IMG/VR virus record: IMGVR_UViG_3300045241_000137
DNA length: 20,000 nucleotides
Source: an uncultured virus (IMG/VR IMGVR_UViG_3300045241_000137)
Taxonomy: Duplodnaviria; Heunggongvirae; Uroviricota; Caudoviricetes
Strand: one strand, 5' to 3'
A program made the position numbers and the translations under genes. The notes under the pieces were generated by a model, which saw nothing but the letters and a program-made list of their open reading frames with translations, did not search any database and had not been told where the DNA came from. Positions 3,882 to 20,000 of this stretch are shown here, one piece after another (position 1 is the first letter of the stretch; each line of letters begins with the position of its first letter).

Positions 3882-3892
3882 GGACGGTGACG

Positions 3893-4951: not shown

Positions 4952-5163
4952 ACGTCCCCGTCAAGAACACGGCGTGCATACGCAGCCATCTGCTCCGCGT
5001 CCCGTCCGTTCGCGCGCGCCGAGCGATTCGGCGAGGCTAGATGTTCCAGGGCGTCACGCAACGCCAGGTAATCCTGGGCCATGAGCGAGACGGCGCCCGG
5101 CGCTTGCGTGTCGGCCCACTCCTCCGCGAGCTCGACGATCTGCTGCCTGGTCTTCTCGCTCAC
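4948..5163 (-). CDS. Hypothetical protein (71 aa)
   Basis: GTGA overlaps with terL and with the TAGT-like gene. Confidence 0.65.
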   Translation of the reverse strand: MSEKTRQQIVELAEEWADTQAPGAVSLMAQDYLALRDALEHLASPNRSARANGRDAEQMAAYARRVLDGDV

Positions 5164-6791
5164 CGGATCGCCTGCAACGAGCCCTGCTCCACAGACCCGC
5201 CCCTTGCCCTGCCCAACCTGGCGTGTGCCTTCCGTCCGGCGCCGCGCGACCAGATCACCGCCTGCGTGAACGCATCGACGTCGTCGTCATGCTCCGCGTT
5301 CGGGAACGCCGCCGCCTGGTCGATCAACTGCTGCGTGAAATCAGGGGTGCCCATCGGGTCGTAAAACGAAGGAAGCGACGGGTTCGCCATGCCCGGCACC
5401 CACACGTTCTTCCCCTCCAGCGCCGGCTCCGCAGCCTCCGCGCGCGCGACCTTGGAGGCGTCGCTGTTGAACGGGATGATCCCCCTGAGTTCGCGTTGCA
5501 GTTCGAGGATGATGTCGGGGCCGTTCGTCTTGTTCTCGATCAGGATCGAGTGCGGAGTGTGCTGCCATTCCTTGTCGACCCATCCGGACAGGTCACGGAT
5601 CGCCTGCTTCGTCTTCGACAGGCTCATCCGTTCTTTCCTGACCGCGAGCAGATACATGTTCGGTCCCGACAACCCCCAGAGCTGGCCGACGACGAAGTCG
5701 TTGACCGACCGGTCCTTGAACGCCGTGTCCCACGACTGCACAAGCCGGTGAAACCTGGGCAGGTGCTGGCGTTGCCCATCATCAAGCCACCAGCGCGGAA
5801 AGAACTGCCAGTGCGAGCGCTTCAGGATCGCGCCCTCCCGCGCCGAAGGCCGCTGCTGCAACTGTCCCGCAGCCCTGAACGACGCCAACGTCTTCGCCAA
5901 CGCGTCCGACGACCGGGCCGACCGGCGTGCCGGACACAGCAGTTCGCCCTCCTGCTCGCGCGCGTCCCCCAGGATCACCCGTCCCGAAGGCAACCGCACC
6001 TTCGGCGGCGTGACCAACGGATGCCTGGCCTCGTACCGCTCCGGCAAACACAGCACCTCCCACTCGTCCGGCGACTTCTCCAACACATGCCCGATCAAGT
6101 CCTTTTCGTGCAAGCGCTGCGCGATGATCACCTCGCAACCCGCCTCCGGGTCCTTGTAACGGTGCGGCAGAGACCCGTCATGGAACTCGATCACCTGCTC
6201 ACGATCCTTGTTCGACAAAATCTCCGCCGCGTCGTGCGGATCGTCGATCACGATCACATCCGCATGCTGGCCCGTCGCGCCAGACATCGGGGTCGCCATC
6301 CGCGACCCGCCCCGGTTGTTCGAGAAACGATTGCGCGCGTTCTCGTCCTCGCGCAACACAAACTTCTTGCCCCACCGCTGCTGAAACCACGACGACAAAA
6401 TCAGCATCCGCGACAGCGCCGCGAACTTCTCCGCCAGCTCCCGCTTGTACGAACACGTCAAATGCCCCCTAGACGGCCTGGACGTCCACTCCCACGCCGG
6501 AAAACACACCGACGCCACCGTCGACTTCGTCATCCCAGGCGGAAGACAGATCACCAGCCGTCGGATCTCGCCCGACGACACCGCCTCCAGATGCTCGCAG
6601 ACAGCGTCGATATGCCAGCCCGCCGTCAGCGGCTTCCCATCGTCGTAGAGCGGCACCCCCGACCACGCGTTCTGCACGAACAACCGCAGCGACCCCGACC
6701 ACTCCAGCGCCTGCTCCTCAAACGCCTGCCCACGCTGCATCCGCTCCACCGCCGCAACCGCCTCCGCAGCCGTCAAAATCCCCGCGGCCAT
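5160..6791 (-). CDS. terL: Terminase large subunit (543 aa from ATG 6791)
   Basis: Walker A-like ICLPPGMTKST, Walker B VIVIDDPHD, coupling motif IAQRLH, nuclease QSWDTAFK and HDDDVDAFTQA. TGATG overlap at 6791. Confidence 0.95.
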   Translation of the reverse strand: MAAGILTAAEAVAAVERMQRGQAFEEQALEWSGSLRLFVQNAWSGVPLYDDGKPLTAGWHIDAVCEHLEAVSSGEIRRLVICLPPGMTKSTVASVCFPAWEWTSRPSRGHLTCSYKRELAEKFAALSRMLILSSWFQQRWGKKFVLREDENARNRFSNNRGGSRMATPMSGATGQHADVIVIDDPHDAAEILSNKDREQVIEFHDGSLPHRYKDPEAGCEVIIAQRLHEKDLIGHVLEKSPDEWEVLCLPERYEARHPLVTPPKVRLPSGRVILGDAREQEGELLCPARRSARSSDALAKTLASFRAAGQLQQRPSAREGAILKRSHWQFFPRWWLDDGQRQHLPRFHRLVQSWDTAFKDRSVNDFVVGQLWGLSGPNMYLLAVRKERMSLSKTKQAIRDLSGWVDKEWQHTPHSILIENKTNGPDIILELQRELRGIIPFNSDASKVARAEAAEPALEGKNVWVPGMANPSLPSFYDPMGTPDFTQQLIDQAAAFPNAEHDDDVDAFTQAVIWSRGAGRKAHARLGRARGGSVEQGSLQAIR

Positions 6792-6919
6792 CAGCCGACC
6801 AGCCTCGAACAAGGGTTCGAGTCCGCGCGGCTCTCGTAGAACTCACGGACGTCTTCGTAGACCACCCACGGCGCGATCCAGATCGCCAGTCGTTCGCGCA
6901 GCCGCTCGACCCACCTCAT
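6791..6919 (-). CDS. Small hypothetical protein (42 aa; may extend in frame to ATG 7102)
   Basis: GAGG 8 nt before ATG 6919; stop overlaps the terL start. Confidence 0.45.
   Translation of the reverse strand: MRWVERLRERLAIWIAPWVVYEDVREFYESRADSNPCSRLVG
6805..6820. promoter_or_regulatory. Perfect actinobacterial-type LexA (SOS) box
   Basis: TCGAAC-AAGG-GTTCGA equals the TCGAAC-N4-GTTCGA consensus and lies 14 nt upstream of the terL ATG. Confidence 0.55.
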
Positions 6920-7098
6920 GTCTTCGGCCTCGTAGACCAAGTTCGAGACCGGGCGACACAAAACGCCCGTTGCCGGTGCGGTACTAGATGTGAGAGTAGA
7001 ACTCTCAAAGCGCGAGGTTCGTCTACTCGTCGCGGCACTCGAACAGCCGTCGTGTTGCGACCCGGCGGCGGCGAGGCTGTACGAGAAACTCGCCGCGC

Positions 7099-7433: not shown

Positions 7434-7465
7434 CCGCCTCGAAGACCAGTACGAGACCAAACAAC

Positions 7466-8099: not shown

Positions 8100-8130
8100 G
8101 GCAGGAAGGGGGTCGCGCCCCCTTCCTGCC
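8100..8130. other. Perfect 13-bp inverted repeat
   Basis: GGCAGGAAGGGGG-TCGCG-CCCCCTTCCTGCC. Confidence 0.85.
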
Positions 8131-8260
8131 GCCTCCGGCGTCGAACGGCGCACGGTCTCGGGCGTCGACGTCGCGCCGGTCTCGCCGATCGCGCGGCGCC
8201 GGCCGTGCACGGCGCGCGCTCGAGCTGCTAGCGAAAGTAACCCGCACGGCCTAGCAGGTT

Positions 8261-8302
8261 TATGCTACGCTCGCGCGGTCAAGTGTTCCCAACCGTTAGG
8301 GG
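8261..8302 (+). promoter_or_regulatory. -10 box and leader/RBS motif
   Basis: TATGCT at 8261 and ACCGTTAGGGG at 8292-8302; same layout as 12737/12766. Confidence 0.5.
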
Positions 8303-8309
8303 ATGAGTC

Positions 8310-8396
8310 ATGTTCGGTTTGTGTTTGCTCGTGCTCGTGGTGTTGGCACCACTCGTGCTAGTGGTGTTCGGGATGTGGCGAGCGGTGTCGTCGTGA
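8310..8396 (+). CDS. Small single-TM peptide (28 aa)
   Basis: Not in the ORF track; MFGLCLLVLVVLAPLVLVVFGMWRAVSS, AGGGG 7 nt upstream, GTGA overlap with the next ORF. Confidence 0.6.
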   Translation: MFGLCLLVLVVLAPLVLVVFGMWRAVSS

Positions 8397-8554
8397 ACTG
8401 CGCGCGTTGCGGCTATCCGCCCGATTGGCATTCTGAGGATAACGGCGCGTGCCCGGACGACGATTGCCCGCGTCCGGATAGTGCAGCGGCGCCGGTTAGG
8501 TGGTCGCCGATGGTAAAGCCGGACCTAGACGATTACGACGGATTCGTCCGATGA
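8393..8554 (+). CDS. Small Cys/His Zn-binding-like protein (53 aa)
   Basis: MNCARCGYPPDWH...C...C; overlaps at both ends. Confidence 0.55.
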   Translation: MNCARCGYPPDWHSEDNGACPDDDCPRPDSAAAPVRWSPMVKPDLDDYDGFVR

Positions 8555-10188
8555 GTGATTCCGTATATGAGCGGGACGCGCGCAGGATCGGCGATGCGAT
8601 CGCGGCTATGCGCAGGGGTGAGACGTCAACGGCGGGTATCTACGATTACTCTCGCACGCTCGTGGACATCGATATGCGGCGCCGTGAAGCGTATAGCTAC
8701 GGCCGGCATTTTCCTTTGTTTCGCTACGTGCCCGCGAGCGGGCGTCGTAAAGAGCTCTTTGTGGTCAATGGTGACGAGTCGCCGCGGTCCGGCCGCGGCT
8801 GGGGTGGTTCGCGGACACCGGACCATATGAGCGATACGCGCCGGCTTATCGCGGCAACGGGCGCCGATAGTGTCGTTATCCCGTTTAGCGCGCTCGAGGG
8901 GGCAGGCATTGACATTGACTCGGTTCGCCCGGTTCACGTTCGCCCGGATGAGAACTGGACAGAGACGCGCCGCGCGGCATCCATTGACGATTTGCCCGAT
9001 AGCCTGCGCAGGTCTCTAGGAGAGTCTTGGTCTAGCGTCACAGGTCCGGATGCGAGCGGCGCGTATAGCTGGGATGTTCGGCGCCATCGGCTAGGCGATT
9101 GTTTGTTTTCGGCCGTGCGCGAGGGTAAGCGGTCCCGTTTTCTGTCCTCATTTGATTATGAGGAACCCGCGCCTATGTATTTTCTGGTTCAGGTCCCGCG
9201 CGGTGCAGGGGATACCGTTGAAACTGCGATTGACAGTTTGGCACCGCGCGCGGTTTGGGCCGCGCGGGCACGCAATATCCCGGTTTACCGTCAGGGCGAC
9301 ATCTTCTTTATAGAGACGCGTATGACGGACCTAGACCTAGAGCTGCGCGTGATAACTGCGCGTGCACGGTTGACGATGTTGGACCGCGATGCGCGGCCAC
9401 GGAGGGGTGAGACAGGCTATGTTCGCCCGTTGACCGCGGCGGAAACGCGCCGGATGCGGGCGATGGTACGCGCCGAATATTTGCGTATCACTCGGGACGC
9501 GCGGACCCAGCTCGAGCATAGAGACGCGCCGCGCGCCGGTCCTAAGACTGAGAAAGGTTCACGCGCGCGATGGGCAAAGGTTCGCGCCGGCGACGCGCGA
9601 GACCTAGAAGTAGCGCGGGCGAATCTTCGGCGCGCGACTCTAGGCGGACGGCCGGAACGGTATTCGCACTACGGAGAAATGGATCGATACGCGCCGGTGC
9701 AGCGCTACACGAGGATGAGTCCGCTGCAGTATGAGCGGGCTACGATTGCGGCGCGCGTGAAGCGTGCCCGCGAAGCGCTCGAGACCGTGCAGGATCGCGC
9801 GGCGCGTAATGCGATGGGACGCGCCGCGGCGCGCGACGTCTATAGGGCGCCGCTCACGGCGGGACCGGCCGCGATTGTTGCTATGCGTATGGCACGGTCC
9901 GCGGCGCGCGCAAAGTTCTACCCGCAAGAGACCGGCGCCGGCTATGACGCGCACCGGCGCGCCGTTCGCAACGTCCTATCCATTTACGGGACCGCTCATA
10001 CCGCGCGTGAAGTTGCGCGCGTAAGAGGGGGCGCCGTTTATGTTCGCGGCAAGGTCTCGCACCGGCCCGAACTAGACGACGGCCGGCCCAGCCGTTGGGA
10101 TACACGGCCGGAACATAGGCCGCTCGAGTTGCGCGACGATTGTTGGTATCTCGCGGTTCGCAATCGTGTCCCGAGGTCCCGCGCGTGA
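8551..10188 (+). CDS. Large phage hypothetical protein with RQGDIFF motif and Arg-rich insert (545 aa)
   Basis: Long ORF with YSYGRHFPL, HRLGDCLF, RQGDIFFIE, HTAREV, YVRGKVSH and EHRPL...WYLAVRN; ATGA overlap. Confidence 0.85.
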   Translation: MSDSVYERDARRIGDAIAAMRRGETSTAGIYDYSRTLVDIDMRRREAYSYGRHFPLFRYVPASGRRKELFVVNGDESPRSGRGWGGSRTPDHMSDTRRLIAATGADSVVIPFSALEGAGIDIDSVRPVHVRPDENWTETRRAASIDDLPDSLRRSLGESWSSVTGPDASGAYSWDVRRHRLGDCLFSAVREGKRSRFLSSFDYEEPAPMYFLVQVPRGAGDTVETAIDSLAPRAVWAARARNIPVYRQGDIFFIETRMTDLDLELRVITARARLTMLDRDARPRRGETGYVRPLTAAETRRMRAMVRAEYLRITRDARTQLEHRDAPRAGPKTEKGSRARWAKVRAGDARDLEVARANLRRATLGGRPERYSHYGEMDRYAPVQRYTRMSPLQYERATIAARVKRAREALETVQDRAARNAMGRAAARDVYRAPLTAGPAAIVAMRMARSAARAKFYPQETGAGYDAHRRAVRNVLSIYGTAHTAREVARVRGGAVYVRGKVSHRPELDDGRPSRWDTRPEHRPLELRDDCWYLAVRNRVPRSRA

Positions 10189-10328
10189 GACTCGTGCTAG
10201 ACGTTTTCGCGGCAGTTGTCGCGGTGTTGTATGCGCGCCGTGAGGTTTGCGGCGCGCTCGAGGTTTGGGCCGATCGGCCCAACGGTTGCGGGACCGTTGC
10301 CCGCGCGAAAGGAAAGGAAGGGTCCTAA
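10185..10328 (+). CDS. Hypothetical protein (47 aa)
   Basis: GTGA and TAATG overlaps. Confidence 0.4.
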   Translation: MRLVLDVFAAVVAVLYARREVCGALEVWADRPNGCGTVARAKGKEGS

Positions 10329-10546
10329 TGGACACTTTCACGCTTACCATCGTCGACGAGGATGAGGTAATCCTGGCCGATACCGTTACGGCGCCGATGT
10401 GCACGAGCTGCGGCGCGATCGCTGCACCGGATGGGACCTGTCTCGAGATTGGCGCGTGCGAGCGGGCGGACCGCGCCGCAACGCGCGGCGCGACAGGACC
10501 GGCCGCGAAGTTTCGCGCGTGGACAGCTCGCGGGACCGTGGACTGA
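10328..10546 (+). CDS. Hypothetical Zn-ribbon-like protein (72 aa)
   Basis: AAGGAAGG upstream; CTSC...C...C. Confidence 0.65.
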   Translation: MDTFTLTIVDEDEVILADTVTAPMCTSCGAIAAPDGTCLEIGACERADRAATRGATGPAAKFRAWTARGTVD

Positions 10547-10625
10547 GCTAACCCGCTTCGGCGCGCGTAGGCGCGCATAACCGAGTCCTGCACGCGTCGA
10601 CGGACGCGGGAACATCGCAGGAAAC

Positions 10626-10654
10626 AAAGACCGGCGCCGGCCGGTCTTTTCTTT
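10626..10654 (+). terminator. Intrinsic terminator
   Basis: AAAGACCGGC-GCCG-GCCGGTCTTT followed by TCTTT, downstream of the plus-strand operon. Confidence 0.8.
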
Positions 10655-11093
10655 GCCCGCATACAGGCGCGCGCGTGAGCGCGCCAGGAGGGATAGCCGA
10701 TTACCCTGCCCGATTGCCCGCACGACGTTAGAGCTGCTTACGCGCGGCCGGTCCCGCCCGGTTTAGGATCCTGCGCGCCGATTGGCGCCGCGCGCGCGCC
10801 GGCCGTGAACGTTGACGCGCCGGCGCCGGTCCCGTTCGGGCACGCGCGCGAGCTCGTGGCACGCGCCGTGCACGGCGCCGGCGCCGCGGTTAGACGTCTA
10901 GCCGGCGCCGTGCTCGAGCGCTGCAGCAGGCGCCGCGCGCCGGCCGGCGCGCCGTGGCACGAGCATTGCCGCGGCGCGCCGCGCGCGATCGGCGAGACCT
11001 GCCCGATGCGAGCGGCCGCAGGCATCGATAGGTCCCCGTCTATCGCTCGGCCGATCGATAGGTCCGAGCCTCATAGTTGCGACCGCAAGCAAC

Positions 11094-11121
11094 CCGGGCG
11101 CCGGGCGCCGGGCGCCGGGCA
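11094..11121 (+). repeat. 7-bp tandem repeat (CCGGGCG)x4
   Basis: CCGGGCG CCGGGCG CCGGGCG CCGGGCA. Confidence 0.7.
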
Positions 11122-11190
11122 TCCTGCCGCCGGGGCACCCCTGCCGGCGCCGGAGGGTGACGTCACCTAGTGCCGGTGCTTTCGGTCCCC

Positions 11191-11976
11191 CTAGTGCTCG
11201 GGCTTTTCATCTAGTGCCGGGGCTTCTAGTGCCGGGGCTTCTGCCTCAGTCCATTCGCCGTCATCGACCAGTTCGAGCACGTCCGCCGGCACCGCTTCGA
11301 TCGCAGGCCGGGCCGTCCTCGTCACCGCCGGATCGTCGAGACCGGGCGAATACTCCTGTAGGAGCTGAGCTAGTAGCCGGGCTTTCTCCATCGGCATGCG
11401 CTCCCAGTCCACGAGCGGCTGGAACCGAACGGACACGTCGACCGTCGAACGGGCGACCGGCGCGAACTGCTCCGGATCCAGCATCTTCAGCAGCGTCTTG
11501 TAATCCCCTTTGCGCCGGGCTTCTTGAATCAGCTCGTGATTAAACTCCGCGCGCGCCTGCTCCAACGCCGCCACTAGATCCGCGTGCAGGCCGCCCTTGT
11601 CGGCGTCCCTGTCCTCGCGGCCGCGCTTCTCCCAGCGCTTCGCCGTAGCCTCCACGACTCCGCACCGCCGATACGCGTCCGCCTTCGTCATCCCCTCCCG
11701 CACCAGCGAAGCAACGTCGTCGACCAGCTCGCCGGTCAGCTTGCGAGCTCGGGCACGCTCGCGCGCGAACGGAATCGTCGGCTCCGCCATGACAGCCTCT
11801 AGAACGGCGCCGGCGTGAAGATCGATCAGACGGCAGATAGCCGTGGAGCGGGTGACACCGAGACCGCGCGACATCTCCTCGAGCGCGTCGTAGCGGTCTC
11901 GGTCGACCGTCGCTCCGATCGTGATGTTCCTGACCCCGCGATGACGCTCGGGAGGTTTGCGCTCGACGACTGACAT
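11191..11976 (-). CDS. Probable terminase small subunit with an extra N-terminal RHH-like domain (261 aa)
   Basis: ITIGATVDRDRYDALEEMSRGLGVTRS is RHH-like. KLTGELVDDVASLVREGMTKADAYRRCGVVEATAKRWEKRG...ALEQARAEF resembles the TerS HTH plus oligomerisation helix. Same strand as terL. Confidence 0.6.
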   Translation of the reverse strand: MSVVERKPPERHRGVRNITIGATVDRDRYDALEEMSRGLGVTRSTAICRLIDLHAGAVLEAVMAEPTIPFARERARARKLTGELVDDVASLVREGMTKADAYRRCGVVEATAKRWEKRGREDRDADKGGLHADLVAALEQARAEFNHELIQEARRKGDYKTLLKMLDPEQFAPVARSTVDVSVRFQPLVDWERMPMEKARLLAQLLQEYSPGLDDPAVTRTARPAIEAVPADVLELVDDGEWTEAEAPALEAPALDEKPEH

Positions 11977-12733
11977 CTCCGTGAAGCCTACGGGAGAGTC
12001 ACGACATCCCCGAGATACAACGGAATCGGACTATCTCGGCCGAGACGCGGCGCGCGCCTCATCCGCCAAGTCATTCTGCCGCGTTCGCGTTATCGACCGT
12101 TTCGGCACCTTTCCCGTTGTTCGTTTAGGGCGGAAAACCGTGGCATTCGCGTTAGGTAGGAGCGGGTTGCGCGAGTTGCCGCCGGCTCAACGCGGCTTCG
12201 CGCAATCCTACCCGCGCATACCCGCCCGGTCAAGGTATTGGGGCTGGTATAGGCTTGGTTTTGGCTCTATAGCTGGGTTTGCGGGGTGTTTTCTTAACAA
12301 TCAGGTGCGGTTCGGCACGAGTATATTTGGTTCGTTCGTGAGTTGCAGGGGTTTTTCGGTGTCGGCGGCGGTTCTCACATTTGCGGTAGACGATGTTGTG
12401 TCGGCTGTTCCGGACGTGTGCTGTTCTATGACTTGGTTTGTGCTCGGTGTTCCGGTGGTGTTCCGGATATTGGGCGAGATGTCTTGTTCGTTTGTGCGCA
12501 AGTGACACTTGCAGCACACAAGGTTTGCATTCGGCTTGGTTGACCGGCACATTCTGAGCACACTCAGCACACGCTCGGGATCGTGTTGTCGGTCTAGGCG
12601 ACGGTCGTGTTTCTATATCTGGCAACGCCGGCGGGGGTTGGTTGGGCCGTAGCGTGCGTGTTGTTTATGGCTCGGCTGCGTTGCATCAGTTTTTCTTTGG
12701 TCGTCCTGATGTCTACACAAACCGCTCTTTATC

Positions 12734-12777
12734 TGGTATGCTGCACAGTGACGCACAAGACTTCTACCGTTAGGAGG
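12734..12777 (+). promoter_or_regulatory. Extended -10 promoter and leader/RBS of the rightward operon
   Basis: TGG-TATGCT at 12734-12742, then TCTACCGTTAGGAGG at 12763-12777 and ATG 12785. Confidence 0.65.
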
Positions 12778-12784
12778 TCGTGAG

Positions 12785-13210
12785 ATGAGTGGTACGACTG
12801 GCAGCATCGAGGCGGCGGGCGCGCATTTGGAGGCGGCTCGCGCTGAGTTCGAGGCGTATTCGGAGGATGGGCAGATGACGTCGCTCATCGCGGACGCGTG
12901 GGATTTGACGGCCGCGGCGCTCGGGAGGATCGCGGCGCTAGAGACTGAGCAGCAGGCGGGGGTGTCGGCCGCGTCCCGTGGTCAGGTGCACGTCGTCGCG
13001 TATGACGACGTGGTAGTCGTTCGGCTTTACGACCAGACGAGGGACAATCCGGTTGAGCTGAACGTGGCGAAGCGCGGTGATGGTCTGGTGGCGGTCGGAA
13101 TGGAGGATCGCGACTCGGGCAACGTCGAGCTTTGGACGGCCGTAAATGCGGACGCGTTGCGTGCAGCGCTCGCGCTCGTGTGTGTCGGTTCCGTCTCGGT
13201 GGAGGTGTAG
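12785..13210 (+). CDS. Hypothetical protein (141 aa)
   Basis: Strong AGGAGG RBS. Confidence 0.8.
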   Translation: MSGTTGSIEAAGAHLEAARAEFEAYSEDGQMTSLIADAWDLTAAALGRIAALETEQQAGVSAASRGQVHVVAYDDVVVVRLYDQTRDNPVELNVAKRGDGLVAVGMEDRDSGNVELWTAVNADALRAALALVCVGSVSVEV

Positions 13211-13212
13211 CG

Positions 13213-13878
13213 ATGGAGGCTTTCGAGACGTTCGAGCATGCGGGCTTCGTGTGCGAGCTGCACTACGACGAGGCTGCTCCGTCGCCGGCCGACTGGGACC
13301 AGCTTGGGACGGTCTACCAGTTCGGCCGCGCCTGGCTGCAGGGAGCGGAGAGCGCGTCCGGAGACATCGAGGAGGCGCACGAGCGCAACCGCCCCGGGCT
13401 TGTCGTTCGGGCTTTGCGCATGGCGGGCGAGACGGCGGTGTTGTTCCAGTTTCAGGACTACGGGTCGGGCGGTTCGCGGATCCTGGCGTTGGACGACGGC
13501 GAGGACGATCGGGCGACGGGCTATATCTCGACGACGGATGCGCGCGGCCGGGAGCTCGGGATTCCCGAGAAGGATGGGGAGGCGGAGAGGCAGTTGCGCG
13601 GCGAGCTGAAGGACTGGGACGCGTGGGTGTGCGGCGAGGTTGTCGGCTATGTGGTGCGCGAGGACGTGAAGACGTCGAACGGAGCGGACGTCGGCGAGGT
13701 CGTTCACTCGGTTTGGGGCTTCTACCCGGAGCGGGACGTCGACGGGAGCGACGGCTACGAGTACGTTCGTCAGGAGGCGCGGGACGCGGCCGAGTCGGAG
13801 CGGGACTCGCGGGCGGAGCGTGCCAGGGTGGCGGCGGCGGGGTGGGCGATGGCGCACGGTCAGACGGTGACGGCATGA
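13213..13878 (+). CDS. Acidic phage hypothetical protein (221 aa)
   Basis: GGAGG RBS; GEVVGYVV...HSVWGFY resembles a recurrent uncharacterised phage family. Confidence 0.82.
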   Translation: MEAFETFEHAGFVCELHYDEAAPSPADWDQLGTVYQFGRAWLQGAESASGDIEEAHERNRPGLVVRALRMAGETAVLFQFQDYGSGGSRILALDDGEDDRATGYISTTDARGRELGIPEKDGEAERQLRGELKDWDAWVCGEVVGYVVREDVKTSNGADVGEVVHSVWGFYPERDVDGSDGYEYVRQEARDAAESERDSRAERARVAAAGWAMAHGQTVTA

Positions 13879-14060
13879 CCGCCGGGTGGCCTTGGATCGT
13901 GCTCAAGGAGGACCCGCACGACCAGAGCATTACCGCGCACGGGCCTTTCGTTCGGGAGGCGGACGCGTGGGAGCGGGCGCAAGCGCTCGCGGACGAGTCG
14001 GGCGACGATGACGTGCACGAGCATTTCGTGTGCGTGCAGCTTGTGCCGGTGACAGCATGA
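13875..14060 (+). CDS. Hypothetical protein (61 aa)
   Basis: MTAGWPWIVLKED...HGPF; ATGA overlaps. Confidence 0.7.
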   Translation: MTAGWPWIVLKEDPHDQSITAHGPFVREADAWERAQALADESGDDDVHEHFVCVQLVPVTA

Positions 14061-14329
14061 TCGTCCAGGCCCGTCTATGCACGGTCGAGGGTAAGGGGAT
14101 CGGTTGGTGGCGCAACTACTTCACGGATTGCGAGGACCTGCGCGATGCGTCCTGGTTCGCGCGCGATCTTGTGCCGAAGTGTCAGGTCCGCGTGAAGGAC
14201 GGGCGCGAGGTTGTGTTCGGTCCGTGTCGTGCGGAGGAGCTGCAGGCCGTCCGCGGGGACTGGCCGAACGGTTCGCGGTCGACGGTCGGCGCCACTAACG
14301 GCGCGGACGGGGGTGGGCTCGACACCTAA
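14057..14329 (+). CDS. Hypothetical protein (90 aa)
   Basis: ATGA overlap; stop lies 7 nt before the ribozyme. Confidence 0.65.
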   Translation: MIVQARLCTVEGKGIGWWRNYFTDCEDLRDASWFARDLVPKCQVRVKDGREVVFGPCRAEELQAVRGDWPNGSRSTVGATNGADGGGLDT

Positions 14330-14336
14330 CCCTGTT

Positions 14337-14410
14337 TCGCGGGTGCCGTCTGATGAGACCGCGACGAAACCCCCGCCCTGGCTTTACCCCCCTCGGGCGG
14401 GGGTCACGGC
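14337..14410 (+). ncRNA. Type I hammerhead self-cleaving ribozyme with loop II pseudoknot
   Basis: Stem I GCCGU(14345-49)/ACGGC(14406-10); core CUGAUGA(14350-56); G14357-C14365 closing loop ACCGCGA; GAA(14366-68); 10-bp stem III 14369-78/14395-14404; GUC(14403-05) cleavage triplet; UCGCGG(14337-42) pairs with CCGCGA(14359-64). Confidence 0.93.
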
Positions 14411-14443
14411 TAAATGTTCACTCTCTACCGTTAGGAGCGTTCG

Positions 14444-14731
14444 ATGACTACCGCAACAACGCAGGTGCTTACACAAGTGGAATGGGAAGGGGAAGACTTC
14501 GCGAAAGGCGAAGCGATCGCGCGGGCGCTCGGATATGAGCAGTTCGCCTACACGTCGACGTCCGCGCTCTGGGGCCTGTTCTGTCTGCCGGAGAATCCGC
14601 GGACGTGGCGGGGGAATCGTCAGGCTTTGCAGGGCGGTTGCATCGTGAAGACGCGCGAGCTCGGATTCCTGTTTGTGCAGGACGGCGAGGACCGCGATCC
14701 CGAATCAGTATGGGGCGAGGTTCAGCTATGA
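14444..14731 (+). CDS. Hypothetical protein (95 aa)
   Basis: AGGAG RBS within TCTACCGTTAGGAG. Confidence 0.8.
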   Translation: MTTATTQVLTQVEWEGEDFAKGEAIARALGYEQFAYTSTSALWGLFCLPENPRTWRGNRQALQGGCIVKTRELGFLFVQDGEDRDPESVWGEVQL

Positions 14732-15417
14732 CTTATCGCGAGCGGAGAGAAGCCCGCGCGGAACGGTTGCGCGAGTGGGCCGAGAAGCGCGAACGGGACG
14801 CCGGCGCGGTGCTCCAGTCGCACGAGCGCTACCGAGGCGACCACGCGTTCAACTTTCAGCCGGGCCATATTCCGGAGCGCGCACGCGTGATCGCGCAGGC
14901 CGACAGGGCGTTCGAGTCGCTGGACAAGGCCGCGGGGATGGCGAGCCGCGCGGCGGGGATCGAGGCGCAGGACGCGCACGCGATCTACTCCGACGACGAC
15001 GACGCGATCGAACGGCTCGAGCAGCGGATCGCGGAGCTCGAAGCGGAGCGGTCTAGGTACAAGGTTTTCAATGCGTCGTGTCGCAAGGTCGACGGCGGCG
15101 ACCCTTCCCTGCTGGACGAGAAGCAGCGCGATAACCTCGCGACGATCCTGCGCGTGTGCCCGTACCAGCTCGGCAAGCGCGGCGAGCTGATCTACACAAA
15201 CCTGACGGCGAACATCGCTCGCAACCGCAAGCGGCTCGAGGAGTTGCGCCGGAACGCGGCAACGGTCGAGGCGGGTAGCCGCGGCAACGGCCGCCCGATG
15301 GTCTCGAGGTTTGCGTCCGAGTGTGCAGGGTGCGGCGAGACGATCGACAAGGGGGCCGAGATTGTCTACTACCGCGTGACGCGCGAGGCTCTGCACGCGT
15401 CCTGCGTGGCCGAATGA
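14728..15417 (+). CDS. DUF3560-like protein with C-terminal CxxC...HxxC Zn finger (229 aa)
   Basis: MTYRERREARAERLREWAEKR, QPGH, IYSDDDDAIERLEQRIAELE, TNLTANIARNRKRLEEL and ECAGCGETIDKG...LHASC. Confidence 0.8.
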   Translation: MTYRERREARAERLREWAEKRERDAGAVLQSHERYRGDHAFNFQPGHIPERARVIAQADRAFESLDKAAGMASRAAGIEAQDAHAIYSDDDDAIERLEQRIAELEAERSRYKVFNASCRKVDGGDPSLLDEKQRDNLATILRVCPYQLGKRGELIYTNLTANIARNRKRLEELRRNAATVEAGSRGNGRPMVSRFASECAGCGETIDKGAEIVYYRVTREALHASCVAE

Positions 15418-15740
15418 TGGCCGGCGGGTTCGACGTCGTTATGGGCGGCGATCCGTCGCCGGAGGATCTTTCGTGGTGCCGCCAACAGCTCGACATCGTT
15501 CGCGACGGCGGCATCTGGGGGGTGCCGCGTTCCGGGCTTCTGTTCACGCGCCGCGGCGACGGCTTCGTGCTGACCGCCCGGATGCCGTGGATCGAGGAGA
15601 TGGAGCAGGCCTACCTGGAGGGTCGGGACGTGCCATCTAGCGCCGATGCTTTGCGCGCCTACCAGGACGCCGACTACGAGCTGATTCGGTCGCGGTTCGC
15701 CGCGGCCGGCATCGAAGTGACGGACGGCACAGGTGGGTAA
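15414..15740 (+). CDS. Hypothetical protein (108 aa)
   Basis: DGGIWGVPRSG...IRSRFAAAGIEV; ATGA overlap. Confidence 0.75.
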   Translation: MMAGGFDVVMGGDPSPEDLSWCRQQLDIVRDGGIWGVPRSGLLFTRRGDGFVLTARMPWIEEMEQAYLEGRDVPSSADALRAYQDADYELIRSRFAAAGIEVTDGTGG

Positions 15741-15891
15741 AACGACTGGTCCTGTCTACAGGTGCGGGAACTGCGATCGGCAGTTGAGGGGACGCGCGTG
15801 GGTGTTCTCGAGGTTCACGCACGCGCGTTTCTGCCCCGACGTCGAGGCCTGCATCGTCAGGGGCCGTAAGCGCAGGAAGGCGAAGCGGTGA
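15733..15891 (+). CDS. Small basic Zn-finger-like protein (52 aa)
   Basis: Not in the ORF track; MGKTTGPVYRCGNCDRQLRGRAWVFSRFTHARFCPDVEACIVRGRKRRKAKR fills the gap with a GTGA overlap. Confidence 0.65.
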   Translation: MGKTTGPVYRCGNCDRQLRGRAWVFSRFTHARFCPDVEACIVRGRKRRKAKR

Positions 15892-16151
15892 CGTTCGAGC
15901 AGCGCTACCACGTACCCCGCTCGCAAGTGTGGGCCGGCTCGCGCGGCCGCCAGTCGGGCCGCGTGCATCTGCACGTCATCGAGCGTTTCGACGTCGGCCG
16001 GATCCACCGCGACGCGGGACAAGCGCTTTGCGGCCGCACCGGCTGGTACGAGCGCGCGGCCGACGCGGACGACCTGGCGAGCTCCGGGGTGTGCGCGCGG
16101 TGCGCTGACATCGCGGCGCGGGCCGGTGCCCTAGCGCTGGGGCTTTCGTGA
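15888..16151 (+). CDS. Hypothetical protein with H...C...CxxC motif (87 aa)
   Basis: RVHL...ALCGR...CARC; GTGA overlaps. Confidence 0.7.
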   Translation: MTFEQRYHVPRSQVWAGSRGRQSGRVHLHVIERFDVGRIHRDAGQALCGRTGWYERAADADDLASSGVCARCADIAARAGALALGLS

Positions 16152-16444
16152 GCTACACCACGGTCTACGACGTGACCTGCGCCGAGTGTGGCGCCGAGTC
16201 GGTCGCGGCCGTGACCGTATGGCCCGGCACCCGCTGGGACCCACCGGATGGCGAGACGACGCCGGAGGAGTGCCCGCAGTGCGGCAAGCCGTTCGACGAC
16301 ACCGACGCAATGGGCGGAGTGCGAGCCGCCCGAACCCGACCGCAAGGGGGACGAATGACCCATCTAGCAGCGAGGCTTTTCTATCGTCGCCGTTTGTCGA
16401 GGCGCATGCACCGGCTGATGTTCTTCTACCGGACAACCTACTAG
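16148..16444 (+). CDS. Zn-ribbon protein (CAEC...CPQC), possibly two genes joined by a frameshift
   Basis: 98-aa ORF with an internal RBS and ATG at 16355. Confidence 0.6.
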   Translation: MSYTTVYDVTCAECGAESVAAVTVWPGTRWDPPDGETTPEECPQCGKPFDDTDAMGGVRAARTRPQGGRMTHLAARLFYRRRLSRRMHRLMFFYRTTY

Positions 16445-16459
16445 GAAGGAGGCTTTTCA

Positions 16460-16744
16460 ATGTCATACGTTCACGATGTCGAAGGCGTCGATCAGGAGAC
16501 CGTCGAGATTCGCGTTCGGCTCGGTCGCGCGGGCTTCGAGAAGTTGCGCACCGGCTCGGTGCCTGTCTCGGAGATCTGGCTCACGGAGCAGCCGGACGGC
16601 TCGTTCGCGCTCGGCGTGGTCACGCCGACGAGGCCGGAGGATCTCGGCTACCAGGCGCGCAAGGTCGAGCGCGACGACCGGCGCGAGCGGTTCCCTAGCG
16701 CCGGTGCTTCTGGCGCAATCGACATGCGTCATCTTCAGCCATGA
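16460..16744 (+). CDS. Hypothetical protein (94 aa)
   Basis: AAGGAGG RBS embedded in a CTAG-N7-GCTTT copy. Confidence 0.75.
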   Translation: MSYVHDVEGVDQETVEIRVRLGRAGFEKLRTGSVPVSEIWLTEQPDGSFALGVVTPTRPEDLGYQARKVERDDRRERFPSAGASGAIDMRHLQP

Positions 16745-17253
16745 GCGAGCCCACCCGTCTCATCCCCAGGGACCTGCCGATCGAGCAGGGCCGCAAACTG
16801 ATGTTCACGTTCACCGTCGCGTTCGACCTGACCGTCGACGAGGACCTGACCGGAGACACTGACCCGCCGACGCTCGACGACATCGAATACTGGCTCGGCG
16901 GAGACTACCGCTCGAGCGAGCAGATATTCAAGGCGCTCGCCGGCCATCAGGAGCGCGAGATCATCGAGCACGAGGTCAGCCTCGACGACCGCTATGAGGG
17001 CGCCGACGACGGGCCCGTCAGGTTCGAGAGCACCTGGGAGGCGAAGGAGCGCGAGCGCGGCCGTGCTGGGGAGTGGCCGATGTCGCGGGCGTGGCTCGAT
17101 CATGTTCCTAGCGCCGGGGCTTTGCCGTTGGGGCCGGAGTCGAACCCGGCGATCCTCGCGCCTAGTGCTGGGGCTTTGCGGAGAGGCAACGGCGATCTAG
17201 TCGCCGAGGTCGCCTACCCGACCGCCGAGGATGTGATGAACCGTGACGGGTAA
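16741..17253 (+). CDS. Acidic hypothetical protein (170 aa)
   Basis: ATGA overlap; the two PSAGAL repeats in the tail are encoded by the DNA motif. Confidence 0.7.
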   Translation: MSEPTRLIPRDLPIEQGRKLMFTFTVAFDLTVDEDLTGDTDPPTLDDIEYWLGGDYRSSEQIFKALAGHQEREIIEHEVSLDDRYEGADDGPVRFESTWEAKERERGRAGEWPMSRAWLDHVPSAGALPLGPESNPAILAPSAGALRRGNGDLVAEVAYPTAEDVMNRDG

Positions 17254-17437
17254 CGCGCCCGCGCTCGTCCGTCACCGCGGCCCGCTGCTCGTCCTGCTGA
17301 TCGTCGCCGCGGTCTTCGCCGGCTCGTCGCTGCTGATGAGCGTGAACCTCGGCATGTGGGTGAGCGCGGCCGCGGAGCTCGTGTTGTTCTGCGGGTTCGT
17401 GGTGGCGTTCGTTGTCGTCAGGAGGTATCGGCCGTGA
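17243..17437 (+). CDS. Small two-TM membrane protein (64 aa)
   Basis: Two hydrophobic segments and a basic tail. Confidence 0.65.
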   Translation: MTGNAPALVRHRGPLLVLLIVAAVFAGSSLLMSVNLGMWVSAAAELVLFCGFVVAFVVVRRYRP

Positions 17438-17697
17438 GCAGAATCAAGATCGCCGACAACCCCGAATATGCCGGGAAAACTCCGCGCCCGCTGAAGGCGA
17501 CGTGCCACGACGGGACGCCGTTCCTGACCGTCGTCTGCGCAGCGGGCCACGAGAACCATGTCCACGAGTCGCAGTTGCCGCCGCTGCCGGAGCCGATAAG
17601 TATGCGCTGCGCAGTGTGCCGCCGCACGATCGAGTTCGACGGCGGCGAGATCGAGGCGGCGTTCCAGAAGATGCGCGACGACGGGTGGATCGAATGA
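17434..17697 (+). CDS. Zn-ribbon-like protein (87 aa)
   Basis: AGGAGG RBS; CAAGH...CAVC. Confidence 0.72.
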   Translation: MSRIKIADNPEYAGKTPRPLKATCHDGTPFLTVVCAAGHENHVHESQLPPLPEPISMRCAVCRRTIEFDGGEIEAAFQKMRDDGWIE

Positions 17698-17822
17698 CCT
17701 GCGTGTGGTGTGGCGAGACCGCAACCTGGGTGCGCGACGACGACGTGACGTTCTGCGACTCCTGCAAGGACGACGACGACACGCAGCTCGTCTGGTGGCC
17801 GATCCCCGCGGAGAAGCCATGA
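17694..17822 (+). CDS. Zn-ribbon microprotein (42 aa)
   Basis: MTCVWCG...FCDSC; ATGA overlaps. Confidence 0.65.
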   Translation: MTCVWCGETATWVRDDDVTFCDSCKDDDDTQLVWWPIPAEKP

Positions 17823-18052
17823 CCATCAACGTCGTCTGTGTCCGTTGCGGCGCCGACATCGCGGAGCACGCCTCGACGTTCGGACGCTGCACCGACGGGC
17901 AAAGCCACGGCTCGATGCTGCTCGACTCGCACGCCCTAGACGACCTGCCGCCGGCGCGGCGCGCGCTCGAGCGGGCCAGGCTCGCTCAGATGCAACACGA
18001 CCGCCGAGTGGACGTGCAGCTTGGCCTCTCTAGCGACGGGGCTTTCGGATGA
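17819..18052 (+). CDS. Hypothetical CxxC protein (77 aa)
   Basis: CVRCG...H...C; ATGA overlaps. Confidence 0.62.
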   Translation: MTINVVCVRCGADIAEHASTFGRCTDGQSHGSMLLDSHALDDLPPARRALERARLAQMQHDRRVDVQLGLSSDGAFG

Positions 18053-18255
18053 CCGTCACTGCCGCCCCCGGCCTGAAGGGCACCCTCGAGTTCTGCACCC
18101 GCCCCGACCACGGGCAGCGGATCATGCACCGCGGCCACGCACTGCTGCTGCGTGCGGCGAACGGCGTGTTCGTGTTCCTCGACGTCGAGACGAGGATGGA
18201 GGTCTGCTTGTACGCGGACGAGATCGTCGAGTTCGTCTCTAGGCCCGAGCCGTGA
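18049..18255 (+). CDS. Hypothetical protein (68 aa)
   Basis: Overlapping start and stop codons on both sides. Confidence 0.62.
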   Translation: MTVTAAPGLKGTLEFCTRPDHGQRIMHRGHALLLRAANGVFVFLDVETRMEVCLYADEIVEFVSRPEP

Positions 18256-18776
18256 CCGCGCACTCCGACCCCGAGTACCTGACCACCCGCCAGGTCGCCG
18301 AACGGATCGGCGTCCGGCCGAGGTCGATCACGCAGGCGCTCTGGCGCGGCCACATGCCCGAACCCGACCTGACGCTCCTCGACCATCACCCGCTCTGGCT
18401 CGTCGACACGATCGACAAATGGCAGGCCGCCCGCCAGAAGTACGGGCGCCGCTGGAAGACGAAAGGCAAGCGCGCGAAGCGCGGCGAGCGGAAGACACGC
18501 AAGCAGCGGATCCGCACCGTGCCCGTCGCGAACGTCCCCAGGAACGCACCGCTCTCTAAGGCCGAGGCTTCACCGAACGAGCCGCTCCCGGTGTCGACGA
18601 TCACCGCCGAGAGCGCAGCAGTGATCGCAGCGGCGATGCGTTTGGACGGGCATTTCTGCACGACGCGCGACGTGCAAGAGCTCGCCGCCGCCGACCCCGA
18701 CAGCCTGGACTGGGAACGGCAGAAGCTGCAGGTGCGGGTGCGCCGCAAGATCCGCGGCCTCGCCGAGCGCAAGTAG
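18252..18776 (+). CDS. AlpA/excisionase-like HTH DNA-binding protein with basic linker (174 aa)
   Basis: YLTTRQVAERIGVRPRSI...MPEPD...PLWLVDTIDKW. Confidence 0.8.
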   Translation: MTAHSDPEYLTTRQVAERIGVRPRSITQALWRGHMPEPDLTLLDHHPLWLVDTIDKWQAARQKYGRRWKTKGKRAKRGERKTRKQRIRTVPVANVPRNAPLSKAEASPNEPLPVSTITAESAAVIAAAMRLDGHFCTTRDVQELAAADPDSLDWERQKLQVRVRRKIRGLAERK

Positions 18777-18806
18777 CCGTCGTCCTGGCGCAGTAGAGTC
18801 CGGGCG

Positions 18807-19094
18807 GTGTGGTGGAAACCTCGTCCGTTCAGACAACTCGACGAGATCCAACAGGCCTTGTCCACGATCAGCAGGAGGCTCGACAAGATGGGCACCGATA
18901 TTCACGCGCTCGACACCGCTCTCGCAACGCTGACGAGTGACGTCGCAACGCTCAAGACCGCCGTGGAGGCGCTGATCGCCGCGATCCCTCCGGGCGACTT
19001 CACCACCGAGATCGAGGCCGTGCAGGCCGCGTTCGGCAGCGTCGAGCAGACGACACAGGAGGCGCAGGGCGCGACTCCTCCCCCGCCCGCCTAG
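18807..19094 (+). CDS. Coiled-coil hypothetical protein (95 aa)
   Basis: Heptad pattern; TAGAGT at 18794-18799 suggests a leaderless start. Confidence 0.7.
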   Translation: MWWKPRPFRQLDEIQQALSTISRRLDKMGTDIHALDTALATLTSDVATLKTAVEALIAAIPPGDFTTEIEAVQAAFGSVEQTTQEAQGATPPPPA

Positions 19095-19112
19095 GGACGG
19101 GGCTTCGCTTCG

Positions 19113-19143
19113 GGCTGCGCGGCACAGTGTCGGCCGCGCGGCC
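19113..19143. terminator. GC-rich hairpin between convergent genes
   Basis: GGCTGCGCGGC-N9-GCCGCGCGGCC, 11 bp with one G-U pair and no U-tract. Confidence 0.45.
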
Positions 19144-20000
19144 TAGCCGAGCAGCGACATCTGGCCGGCGTCCTCGACGGCCTTGCGGATCGCCGCCGCC
19201 GCGTCGCGCTCGGCGCAGATGCGTAGACCATCCGCTCCGTGCTCTTTCCAGAAGCGGATGCGCGCCTCGGCGATCTTCATGTAGTCAGCCTCGCGCTCGA
19301 TCCCCACAAAGTTGAAGCCTTCTAGTGCTGAGGCGACGCCGGTCGTTCCCGATCCGAGGAACGGATCGAGTACGGTTCCGTTCGGTGGTGTGACCAAGCG
19401 GACGAGCCAGCGCATCAGCGCGATCGGCTTCACGGTCGGATGATGGTTGCGTGCGACGAAGCTGCCGCGGTTTCCGTCACGCGCCATCGCCGACGTCGGA
19501 TCCATTTTGAGGCTCGGGAGTTCATCGAACCCTTCGAGTCCGGCGTTCCGTTCGGCGCGCGACACCTTCGCGCAGTAGAAAAACCGAGACGCGCCGCCGC
19601 TGTCGCCGAATAGCGATCCAGCGGCTTGCTCGTCCTTCCAGAGTCCTTTGCCACCGCCATAGATTCCTTCCCGCGCGGCGGGTTCGTGCGGCACGAACCC
19701 GCCGCGCGGTTCTTTGCCACTCGTCAGCCTGCCGCTCTGCTCGTCCAGCATGCGCACCGGGCAACCCTCAACGCACTCCCACACCGGCACCTGCTCGTCA
19801 CCGTACACGGGCGCGTTCGGCTCAGAGTCACCGAGTTCGCTTCCGACGTCGGCGAAACCACCAGGCCACGTTCCGTTACCCGTCTCGCGCTGATCACCAA
19901 GCAGGACCGTCGTTCCGACCTCGACGCAGTCCTCGTGGTGGACGAGCACAACATTCGCGGGCCAGCGGCCACCGGAAGCCTGCTGAGCTTCAGACCCGTC
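19143..20000 (-). CDS. N6-adenine/N4-cytosine DNA methyltransferase (beta class), N-terminus outside the window
   Basis: GRWPANV, GGASRFFYCAK, HPTVKPIALMRWLVRLVTPP and VLDPFLGSGTTG; frame open to 20000. Confidence 0.93.
   Translation of the reverse strand, partial: DGSEAQQASGGRWPANVVLVHHEDCVEVGTTVLLGDQRETGNGTWPGGFADVGSELGDSEPNAPVYGDEQVPVWECVEGCPVRMLDEQSGRLTSGKEPRGGFVPHEPAAREGIYGGGKGLWKDEQAAGSLFGDSGGASRFFYCAKVSRAERNAGLEGFDELPSLKMDPTSAMARDGNRGSFVARNHHPTVKPIALMRWLVRLVTPPNGTVLDPFLGSGTTGVASALEGFNFVGIEREADYMKIAEARIRFWKEHGADGLRICAERDAAAAIRKAVEDAGQMSLLG

Follow-up and report, generated by a model that had tools for sequence, protein, structure and literature searches.

A strand-polar two-part repeat with a tandem array in the tail of a small-terminase-like gene of an uncultured soil virus

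The repeated word and the genes around it

A 20,000-nt stretch of DNA from an uncultured virus of the Caudoviricetes (IMG/VR record IMGVR_UViG_3300045241_000137), hereafter the window, carries a two-part word, CTAG followed seven nucleotides later by GCTT (CTAGNNNNNNNGCTT), that matches 14 times, always on the plus strand and always to the right of position 11160. Four of these copies form a tandem array in and just beyond the tail of a leftward gene for a small-terminase-like protein, P0001, a fifth lies further inside that gene, and the other nine are scattered over the distal part of a rightward operon. An earlier sequence-only reading of this DNA had counted GCTT at that distance after 14 of 24 CTAG tetramers to the right of 11160 and after none of 22 to the left, with four copies packed into 11167-11241, and our own counts agree on each of these points (46 CTAG in all: 22 up to position 10898 and 24 from 11167 onwards). 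All counts cover the 20-kb window, whose proteins are assigned to a contig of 68,895 nt that leaves about 49 kb outside it; a single 31.9-kb assembly contig from a soil metagenome spans the whole window, which has a G+C content of 65%. The 14 strict copies and one degenerate copy are as follows.

11167..11182, plus strand: copy 1 (CTAGTGCCGGTGCTTT), non-coding, just past the stop of the minus-strand P0001 gene; 25.7 bits
11191..11206, plus strand: copy 2, whose CTA is the TAG stop of that gene; antisense K-P-E-H-stop; 23.4 bits
11211..11226, plus strand: copy 3, antisense E-A-P-A-L, in a frame other than that of copy 2
11226..11241, plus strand: copy 4, abutting copy 3 with a 15-nt period; antisense E-A-P-A-L
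11370..11385, plus strand: copy 5, within the P0001 gene; antisense E-K-A-R-L-L-A; 18.8 bits
15637..15652, plus strand: in gene 15414-15740; S-S-A-D-A-L; next start 96 nt on
16131..16146, plus strand: at the 3' end of gene 15888-16151; L-A-L-G-L-S-stop; its GCTT stops 2 nt short of the GTG at 16148, with a G-run in the position of a ribosome-binding site (RBS)
16364..16379, plus strand: 6 nt past the probable true stop (16355-16357) of a zinc-ribbon gene, at the left edge of a spacer of about 100 nt
16441..16456, plus strand: covers the GGAGG RBS of gene 16460-16744; most divergent centre; 17.2 bits
16695..16710, plus strand: C-terminal tail of gene 16460-16744; P-S-A-G-A-S; 46 nt to the next start
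17108..17123, plus strand: in gene 16741-17253; P-S-A-G-A-L
17162..17177, plus strand: in gene 16741-17253; P-S-A-G-A-L
18030..18045, plus strand: at the 3' end of gene 17819-18052; its GCTT stops 4 nt short of the ATG at 18049
18556..18571, plus strand: degenerate copy with CTAA for CTAG, inside an Xis-like helix-turn-helix gene; 16.3 bits
19091..19106, plus strand: its TAG is the stop of the last plus-strand gene (18807-19094); faces the convergent methyltransferase gene ending at 19143

From left to right, the window opens with leftward genes (1-8040), among them the large terminase gene and a run of glycosyltransferases, and passes at 8100-11166 into a region of weak coding signal, plus-strand open reading frames (ORFs) and a very G+C-rich repeat block, which ends at the array. 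An 800-bp non-coding stretch (11977-12784) separates the divergent starts of the P0001 gene, which encodes ribbon-helix-helix (RHH) and helix-turn-helix (HTH) modules, and of a dense rightward operon (12785-19094) of about 19 small genes, mostly joined by ATGA or GTGA overlaps, on which the methyltransferase gene (19949 to 19143) converges. In this stretch G+C falls to about 0.59, AT skew reaches -0.28 (T-rich top strand) and short tandem repeats occupy 12446-12466; it is likely a control region or an origin. GC skew tracks gene direction and gives no origin signal in the window. Four features recur in what follows.

5160..6812, minus strand: large terminase gene, giving the packaging-module context (Terminase_6C; phrog_38, 8e-76)
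11007..11166, no strand: non-coding repeat-rich block adjoining the array, with ATCGATAGGTCC twice, 30 nt apart, CCGGGCG 3.9 times (11094-11120) and the palindrome GGTGACGTCACC
11191..11976, minus strand: gene for the 261-aa RHH and HTH small-terminase-like protein P0001, candidate reader of the word, with a predicted disordered C-tail written by copies 2-4
18252..18776, plus strand: gene for an alternative candidate reader with an excisionase-like winged-HTH N-terminus (phrog_597, 4e-18; phrog_66, 2.6e-6; Xis_Gifsy_1, 0.0045, below cut-off)

The repeat-rich block also holds, within 11024-11166, a palindrome around 11040-11061, and its 12-bp palindrome GGTGACGTCACC at 11155-11166 abuts copy 1; the palindrome GTGACGTCAC occurs only once within the window.

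Enrichment, strand polarity and placement of the copies

Dinucleotide-preserving shuffling (200 replicates) gave a mean of 0.16 matches and at most 2, so that the word is enriched about 90-fold, and 1000 synonymous-codon shuffles of 21 genes (2558 codons) gave means of 2.7 forward matches (maximum 5), these being the copies in unshuffled sequence, and 0.007 reverse matches, against 14 and 0 observed; the excess over shuffles that the sequence-only reading had expected is thus present in the window under both controls. A 17-nt weight matrix applied at a threshold of at least 8 bits returned 16 plus-strand hits, namely the 14 strict copies, 18556 (16.3 bits) and 19322 (10.5 bits), and a single weak minus-strand hit at 14194 (8.6 bits), where block shuffles yield about 1.1-1.25 hits per strand. 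The earlier statement that no copy runs in the reverse orientation therefore stands, with no strict match on the minus strand and the one matrix hit there at shuffle level. Its three near-matches fared unevenly: 18556 is retained as the degenerate copy, 19322 is the weaker of the two additional matrix hits, and 15053 drops out below 8 bits.

The copies share the consensus yCTAGyGCyGGGGCTTy with a conserved core of 16 nt, in which CTAG and GCTT are invariant, a further T is frequent, and information content peaks at positions 1-4 and 12-16 around a weaker, semi-conserved centre (YGCYGGG); no conservation was seen in flanks of 45 nt upstream and 44 nt downstream of the copies. Since the CTAG block, itself a palindrome, and the GCTT(T) block lie about 11 bp apart, they fall on the same face of the helix, and two invariant blocks one helical turn apart with a variable centre make the pattern of a protein that reads two adjacent major grooves. 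The proposal of a protein-read directional signal can accordingly be divided: a strand-polar signal at the nucleotide level is borne out, and the two-block shape would fit a protein-read site. Two other readings of the word were rejected. A promoter was set aside because conservation ends at 16 nt with neither paired -35 and -10 blocks nor a conserved start region of the kind found in phage or sigma-70 promoters, because no consensus promoter stands at any copy (a scan of 12 kb found one sigma-70-like site against 1.3 in shuffles, and none at a copy), and because spacings of 15-77 nt are too dense. A structured RNA or terminator was set aside because folding energies at the copies equal those of controls (mean minimum free energy -16.1 versus -15.9) and Rfam and tRNA scans found nothing at them.

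Rightward genes read the word in all three frames, five times as peptides of the S/P-S-A-G-A-L type, twice as L-A-L-G-L or L-A-A-R-L and twice as a TAG stop, and the leftward P0001 gene reads it antisense in two frames (E-A-P-A-L twice, K-P-E-H-stop once), with one copy beyond its stop. The E-A-P-A-L tail is spelled in rare codons (GAA for 67 of 362 Glu, GCA for 50 of 564 Ala and CTA for 31 of 396 Leu). That one word recurs in three frames in sense, in two in antisense and also outside coding sequence argues for selection at the nucleotide level. The same fact bears on the proposal, hardly credible in our view, that the copies are decoys or targets for a host bipartite reader of the type I restriction-modification kind, or products of chance or local duplication without function. 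Their 4+N7+4 format does resemble type I recognition sequences, and copies 3 and 4 are an exact tandem duplication, but duplication cannot yield identical words in five frames at unlinked places, enrichment is about 90-fold on one strand, phages would be expected to lose restriction targets rather than gather them, and relatives appear to keep the array. Beyond the format itself we found no evidence for the sponge of a type I-like reader that had been suggested earlier.

Ten copies lie in the sense orientation in plus-strand genes and five lie antisense in or next to a single minus-strand gene, with none in the other minus-strand genes; the distribution reported before, over plus-strand genes, one minus-strand gene and an RBS, with imprinted peptides such as P-S-A-G-A and E-A-P-A-L, was recovered. 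The associated claim, of a polarity set by the DNA strand and not by transcription, holds for strand polarity, whereas independence from transcription rests on one minus-strand gene (11191-11976).

One-strand occupancy of this kind is what makes programmed nicking a proper rival, as the sequence-only reading had seen, and we rate it as rather unlikely: the copies would be sites at which a phage nickase or terminase introduces single-strand breaks into virion DNA, as in T5 and in phiKMV-like and tf-like phages. The available part of one report gives phage tf, which has two convergent gene sets, 14 nick sites that are all on the top strand, 11 of them in one half, with positions similar in relatives, and gives phiKMV-type phages a bipartite nick consensus with a 5-nt spacer (PMC3517423); an excerpt of another describes 13 motif-linked breaks in Rembedalsseter, with the motif enriched on one strand in 60 relatives (PMC11780129). 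Like these nick motifs (9 nt in tf and Rembedalsseter, with phiKMV-like and T5 motifs alongside; about 4-14 copies each in the excerpted accounts), the present word keeps strictly to one strand whatever the gene direction, is unevenly spread and shows peptide-level signs of conservation in relatives. Against nicking, four nicks within 75 nt would free pieces of 15-24 nt and leave a gap, and neither a tandem cluster nor a bias towards gene ends is described in the available parts of the nick-phage reports; such a bias is not expected of nicks, though tolerance of altered protein tails could account for it. Neither a nickase nor an HNH gene was recognised in the window, physical breaks at the present motif would be hypothetical, and the large terminase is at most 37% identical to any phage record by tblastn, which sets this lineage apart from tf and Rembedalsseter, phiKMV-like phages and T5.

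Placement relative to genes is not uniform. Eight of the 15 copies lie within coding sequence, seven touch a gene boundary (11167, 11191, 16131, 16364, 16441, 18030 and 19091), and both convergent junctions carry copies (11167-11241 and 19091). Seven of nine copies of the right arm (15.6-19.1 kb) lie no more than 100 nt upstream of the next start (p 0.004 against the whole operon, 0.012 against a sub-region), a cut-off that was picked after seeing the data, with median tests giving 0.04-0.08. The right-arm copies are thus non-random in placement, and a link to rightward transcription is possible. The word ends 2-4 nt short of a start codon in three of the 15 copies (16131, 16441 and 18030), and its G-run there precedes the start (16148, 16460 and 18049, respectively) by 5-7 nt. 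Cluster K mycobacteriophages reportedly carry start-associated sequences, a conserved word just upstream of starts that includes the RBS purines and belongs mainly to non-structural genes; the present word differs in that the copies other than these three are intragenic, at stops or antisense.

The boundary at 16364 depends on how the zinc-ribbon gene (16148-16444, plus strand) is read. Its reading frame appears to break near 16305-16320. Relatives end in an acidic E-P-P-E-P-D tail, found here in the +1 frame with a stop at 16357, and the tail that the ORF encodes past the break is basic and poor in coding signal; its length, to 16444, likely reflects an artefact such as an assembly indel or else a real frameshift. 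As the acidic tail stops at 16357 in the +1 frame, the copy at 16364 is probably intergenic and 16358-16459 would form a spacer between two copies.

Gene-end placement is the strength of an alternative that we consider unlikely, though the likeliest of the rivals, in which the copies are stoperator-like, polar transcription roadblocks for another reader, either the Xis-like HTH protein (18252-18776) or a repressor encoded outside the window. All copies would then face rightward RNA polymerase; they would weaken transcription of the distal early operon and keep polymerase from running through the two convergent junctions, in front of the minus-strand gene at 11191 and of the methyltransferase gene at 19143. 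The preference for sites shortly upstream of starts and the presence of copies at both junctions fit this explanation, as do the stoperators of L5 and TipsytheTRex, which are, in the available part of their description, asymmetric, numerous, placed at short intergenic spaces, active in one orientation only and read by a monomer with two DNA-binding domains (PMC9283540); similar repeat arrays have been proposed for Rhodococcus cluster CA phages, according to an excerpt. With Cluster A stoperators the present motif shares a short asymmetric word, many copies (14 strict and one degenerate), one orientation and frequent placement at gene ends, and where the available account of the stoperator reader describes two different DNA-binding domains on adjacent major grooves, P0001 has two predicted modules. 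It differs from the 13-nt stoperators in being 16 nt long and clearly two-part, in its four-copy tandem block, in occupying part of the visible genome only, and in its five antisense copies at a minus-strand gene. It is also absent from places where a roadblock would matter: no copy overlies a plausible early promoter (the promoter scan gave nothing useful), and strict and matrix scans found none in the main intergenic region 11977-12784, upstream of the operon start at 12785 (no hit of at least 8 bits), within the initial 2.8 kb of the operon, in the leftward genes 1-8040 or in the plus-strand ORF 8500-10188. More than half of the copies lie inside coding sequence, rightward transcription into 11167 is an assumption, and Pfam, PHROG and NCBIfam scans of the window ORFs named no repressor, nickase or HNH protein, or replication initiator; no gp71-like repressor was recognised in these general scans, which included no direct comparison with gp71. 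The direct repeats of the T1-like phage TLS and the motifs of Nostoc cyanophages A-1 and N-1 are likewise over-represented and asymmetric, and the excerpts of these studies weigh promoter, stoperator and enhancer roles; their sequences, hosts and placement differ from ours, being mostly intergenic in the excerpts, and the A-1/N-1 motifs do not all point in one direction.

The split into sense copies in plus-strand genes and antisense copies in the one motif-bearing minus-strand gene would also be accounted for if the word acted in RNA, with the four or five antisense copies in the 3' end of the leftward P0001 mRNA pairing with sense copies of the early operon in mutual silencing of late and early transcripts, or with an RNA-binding protein reading the sense copies. 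Three copies cover RBSs, before the starts at 16148, 16460 and 18049, and the operon has another RNA-level feature in a hammerhead-like core at 14328-14410. We nevertheless find this explanation improbable: conservation takes the form of two separated blocks around a variable centre with no contiguous pairing seed; position 5 is T in all five copies at the P0001 gene and C in six of the nine strict right-arm copies, which would set A against C; pairing of the RBS copy at 16441 would be limited to 4+4 nt; and there is no local RNA structure signal.

P0001, its relatives and the surroundings of the array

The protein encoded at the array matches phrog_4102 (terminase small subunit) with an E-value of 5.9e-12 over residues 72-156, and weak domain matches recur across its family of 25 sequences (RHH_1 in 9, HTH_23 in 11, Mu_Gp27 in 3 and Sf6_terminase in 1). 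An AlphaFold model built from these sequences (mean pLDDT 74) has an RHH-like N-terminus, a three-helix HTH and a long helix, followed by a tail with pLDDT below 50 that is predicted to be disordered. Foldseek placed the Sf6 small terminase TerS first (3hef_B, E 0.34, probability 0.77), with the RHH proteins 3ft7 and 2k9i among the rows, and a PDB sequence search with the family alignment found nothing meaningful. By its model P0001 appears to be a DNA-binding protein with two different reading modules; it is probably, though not certainly, a small terminase.

A tandem block at such a gene recalls replication origins and partition sites. RHH proteins that bind tandem direct repeats are known, as are origins inside initiator genes. 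Here four direct repeats stand in and just past a gene whose product is a DNA-binding protein, and they could act as iterons of an origin or as a centromere for partition to which the RHH protein binds; the dispersed copies would then be auxiliary sites. We judge this highly improbable. The DNA beside the array is 66-82% G+C and not easily melted, no replication initiator, ParA or helicase was recognised next to it, and ten copies spread over 3.5 kb are unlike an auxiliary origin region.

Relatives were compared as protein sequences, and compatibility with the motif was judged from peptides. A protein search found 24 P0001 homologues on environmental contigs (33-75% identity). Counting the window's own, 22 of the 25 family members carry at least one E-A-x-x-L block followed by a G-initial codon, and in 17 two such blocks abut. 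The tail of 22 members closes with K-P-x-x-stop, the motif read in the second frame. The variable residue of these tails is the one encoded by the degenerate spacer, and the last residue, H in most and R in two, fits the T/C choice at motif position 5; the peptide of copy 5, K-A-R-L-L-[A/V], was seen in 5 of 25 members (the window's own included) in an alignment read by eye. These peptides suggest that relatives retain the array. With its own gene ending in the array and its relatives keeping motif-compatible tail peptides in two frames, P0001 is the best candidate among the readers put forward earlier, on the evidence of these protein alignments.

Single copies appear less stable. In gene 16741-17253, the peptide of copy 17108 is kept in 10 of 13 relatives (11 of 14 with the window's own) and that of copy 17162 in none of 13; P-L-G-P-E-S-N-P beyond the motif is invariant, and three of the 13 relatives replace the Ser needed for CTAG. 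For gene 15888-16151, which belongs to a large family, motif-compatible tails occur in 3 of 30 aligned sequences including its own, and both of the others (L-V-P-G-L and L-V-M-G-L) stand on contigs, of 9736 and 11836 nt, that also encode P0001 homologues. The comparison suggests that the array is a feature of the lineage while single copies turn over.

Nucleotide searches returned little. Neither megablast of 10500-19500 nor tblastn of P0001 matched any phage record, IMG/VR scans with the large terminase TerL, the P0001-family alignment and a second family alignment found no relatives, and the exact tandem 30-mer had no hit in IMG/VR, where the degenerate 16-mer matched 79 loci, 78 of them single-copy and one with two overlapping opposite-strand hits, which is the chance level. 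In metagenome contigs the array pattern had no hit, and TerL found only relatives of 30-38% identity, on short contigs. The P0001-family alignment gave two marginal partial matches in 401 sampled genomes of one phylum. The only array found in a genome-collection scan is in Terrabacter carboxydivorans, where three exact tandem copies of the 15-mer CTAGCGCCGGGGCTT with a 19-nt period occupy contig positions 10001-10053 (minus strand) in a spacer of the chromosome on which a DUF2786/DUF7168 gene and a TfoX_N gene converge. A 9-nt tandem repeat lies about 100 nt upstream, a layout that recalls the 7-nt tandem repeat and then motif array of the phage. The word is otherwise nearly absent from the genome (the loose pattern occurs 7 times, versus 173 and 179 for the reversed control) and from the family (strict matches in 3 of 151 genomes), and we take this array as probably a chance variable-number tandem repeat.

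Several features of the surrounding DNA are recorded here in their own right. After the large terminase gene, a minus-strand cluster at 1-4951 encodes a TET-associated glycosyltransferase (PF20691, 3.6e-39) together with two or three family-2 or galactosyl transferases and a polysaccharide deacetylase. This content suggests hypermodification of the DNA or some other role for glycans. Between the terminase-like gene and the remainder of the leftward module sits a 2.8-kb block with plus-strand ORFs at 8500-10188 (phrog_29643) and 10247-10546, flanked by a 35-nt inverted repeat (arms 8171-8205 and 10972-11006, 83% complementary, with a perfect core that measures about 18 nt when the arms are read by eye); the block may be an insertion or be capable of inversion. 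A second repeat family accompanies small minus-strand ORFs upstream of the large terminase gene, at plus-strand coordinates 6855, 6930, 7113 and 7316: the minus-strand word TGGTCTACGA is shared, and at the last three it is followed by a near-identical 3' end running into an overlapping stop and start (ATGA or GTGA); the repeat at 6855 has only the 10-mer in common with them. These repeats look like paralogous C-termini (F-E-L-V-Y-E-A-E) of tandem small genes. In the rightward operon, the hammerhead-ribozyme-like element at 14328-14410 (plus strand) lies in the 114-nt gap between genes 14057-14329 and 14444-14731; against RAGATH-1-hammerhead it scores 35.6 bits, below the gathering score of 56.3 (E 0.011 for the window, 1.4e-4 for a 251-nt stretch), and its alignment contains the core CUGAUGAG...GACGAAAC...GUC. 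If active, it would cleave the early polycistronic RNA. Finally, an 18-bp G+C-rich hairpin with a T-rich tail (19671-19709, plus strand) falls inside the 5' part of the methyltransferase ORF, so that the gene itself may begin only downstream of the hairpin.

A tentative role for the array and the scattered copies

We tentatively rank first the explanation that the copies are oriented sites bound by a DNA-binding protein of the phage, for which P0001 is the likeliest candidate; the array would be a primary site resembling a packaging (pac) site, and the scattered copies would be secondary polar sites. The ranking follows from the parallel between a tandem block in the gene of a DNA-binding protein and pac inside the terS gene of P22, described in the available part of one account as a 22-bp asymmetric sequence (PMC9611059). 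As in P22, an asymmetric word lies inside a small-terminase-like gene (copies 2-5 in 11191-11976), so that site and reader travel together; P22 has one mid-gene site, whereas here four tandem copies stand at the extreme 3' end, ten more are found at 15.6-19.1 kb, and the TerS identity is weak. Two different DNA-reading modules of P0001 would suit two invariant blocks on the same face of the helix. At the 3' end of its gene and just beyond, the four copies arranged head to tail would form a high-occupancy site that marks the place of packaging recognition, and the location inside the reader's own gene would keep protein and site linked. The adjoining repeat-rich block (11007-11166) may, if the array is pac-like, be a cleavage or assembly region. 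Single copies in the distal early operon would serve directional action by P0001, which could, for example, block or pause rightward transcription late in infection.

Several points weigh against this explanation. To our knowledge pac sites are unique in their genomes, and ten more copies 4-8 kb away are no known property of pac. The P0001 gene lies about 4.4 kb from that of the large terminase with plus-strand ORFs in between, and the TerS assignment is weak, with a Foldseek E-value of 0.34, Pfam matches below cut-off and no PDB sequence match. The divergent region 11977-12784, where a regulator's operator would be expected, is free of copies. A dimeric RHH protein would place a second HTH upstream of the motif, where there is no conserved partner block. 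The conserved tail of P0001 could instead be a protein motif, such as a tail that binds the large terminase, and conservation in gene 16741-17253 lies in part at the protein level, since the invariant block extends past the motif and the Ser is lost in 3 of 13 relatives.

A further version, quite unlikely as we see it, would make P0001 a small-terminase-like protein that gained an RHH module and reads one 16-bp word in two roles, the array for packaging recognition and the early-operon copies, perhaps together with a recruited terminase nuclease, for transcription shut-off or one-strand nicking. If true, packaging and the late shut-off of early genes would be coupled through a single pair of protein and site, and localized nicks would gain a mechanistic origin.

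Oriented repeated words are a known kind of phage feature, and strand-polar examples include stoperators, nick motifs and pac sites, whose roles are largely unexplained in the case of nicks and poorly understood in the case of TerS recognition. The combination found here, of a 16-nt bipartite word, a tandem block read in two frames in the tail of an RHH-terminase-like gene and copies limited to the distal early operon, we have not seen described, in searches that were aimed at known systems rather than at the motif; among the papers listed by one literature search, none joined 'small terminase' and 'ribbon-helix-helix'. The case offers a word enriched about 90-fold, a candidate reader encoded at the array and some two dozen uncultured relatives that seem to keep it. 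If P0001 does not bind the word, the motif becomes one more lineage-specific regulatory repeat. If it does, the pair would provide a tractable system for specific DNA reading by a small terminase, which the available part of one account describes as hard to show in vitro for pac phages (PMC9611059), and it might tie packaging proteins to transcription control or to nicking.

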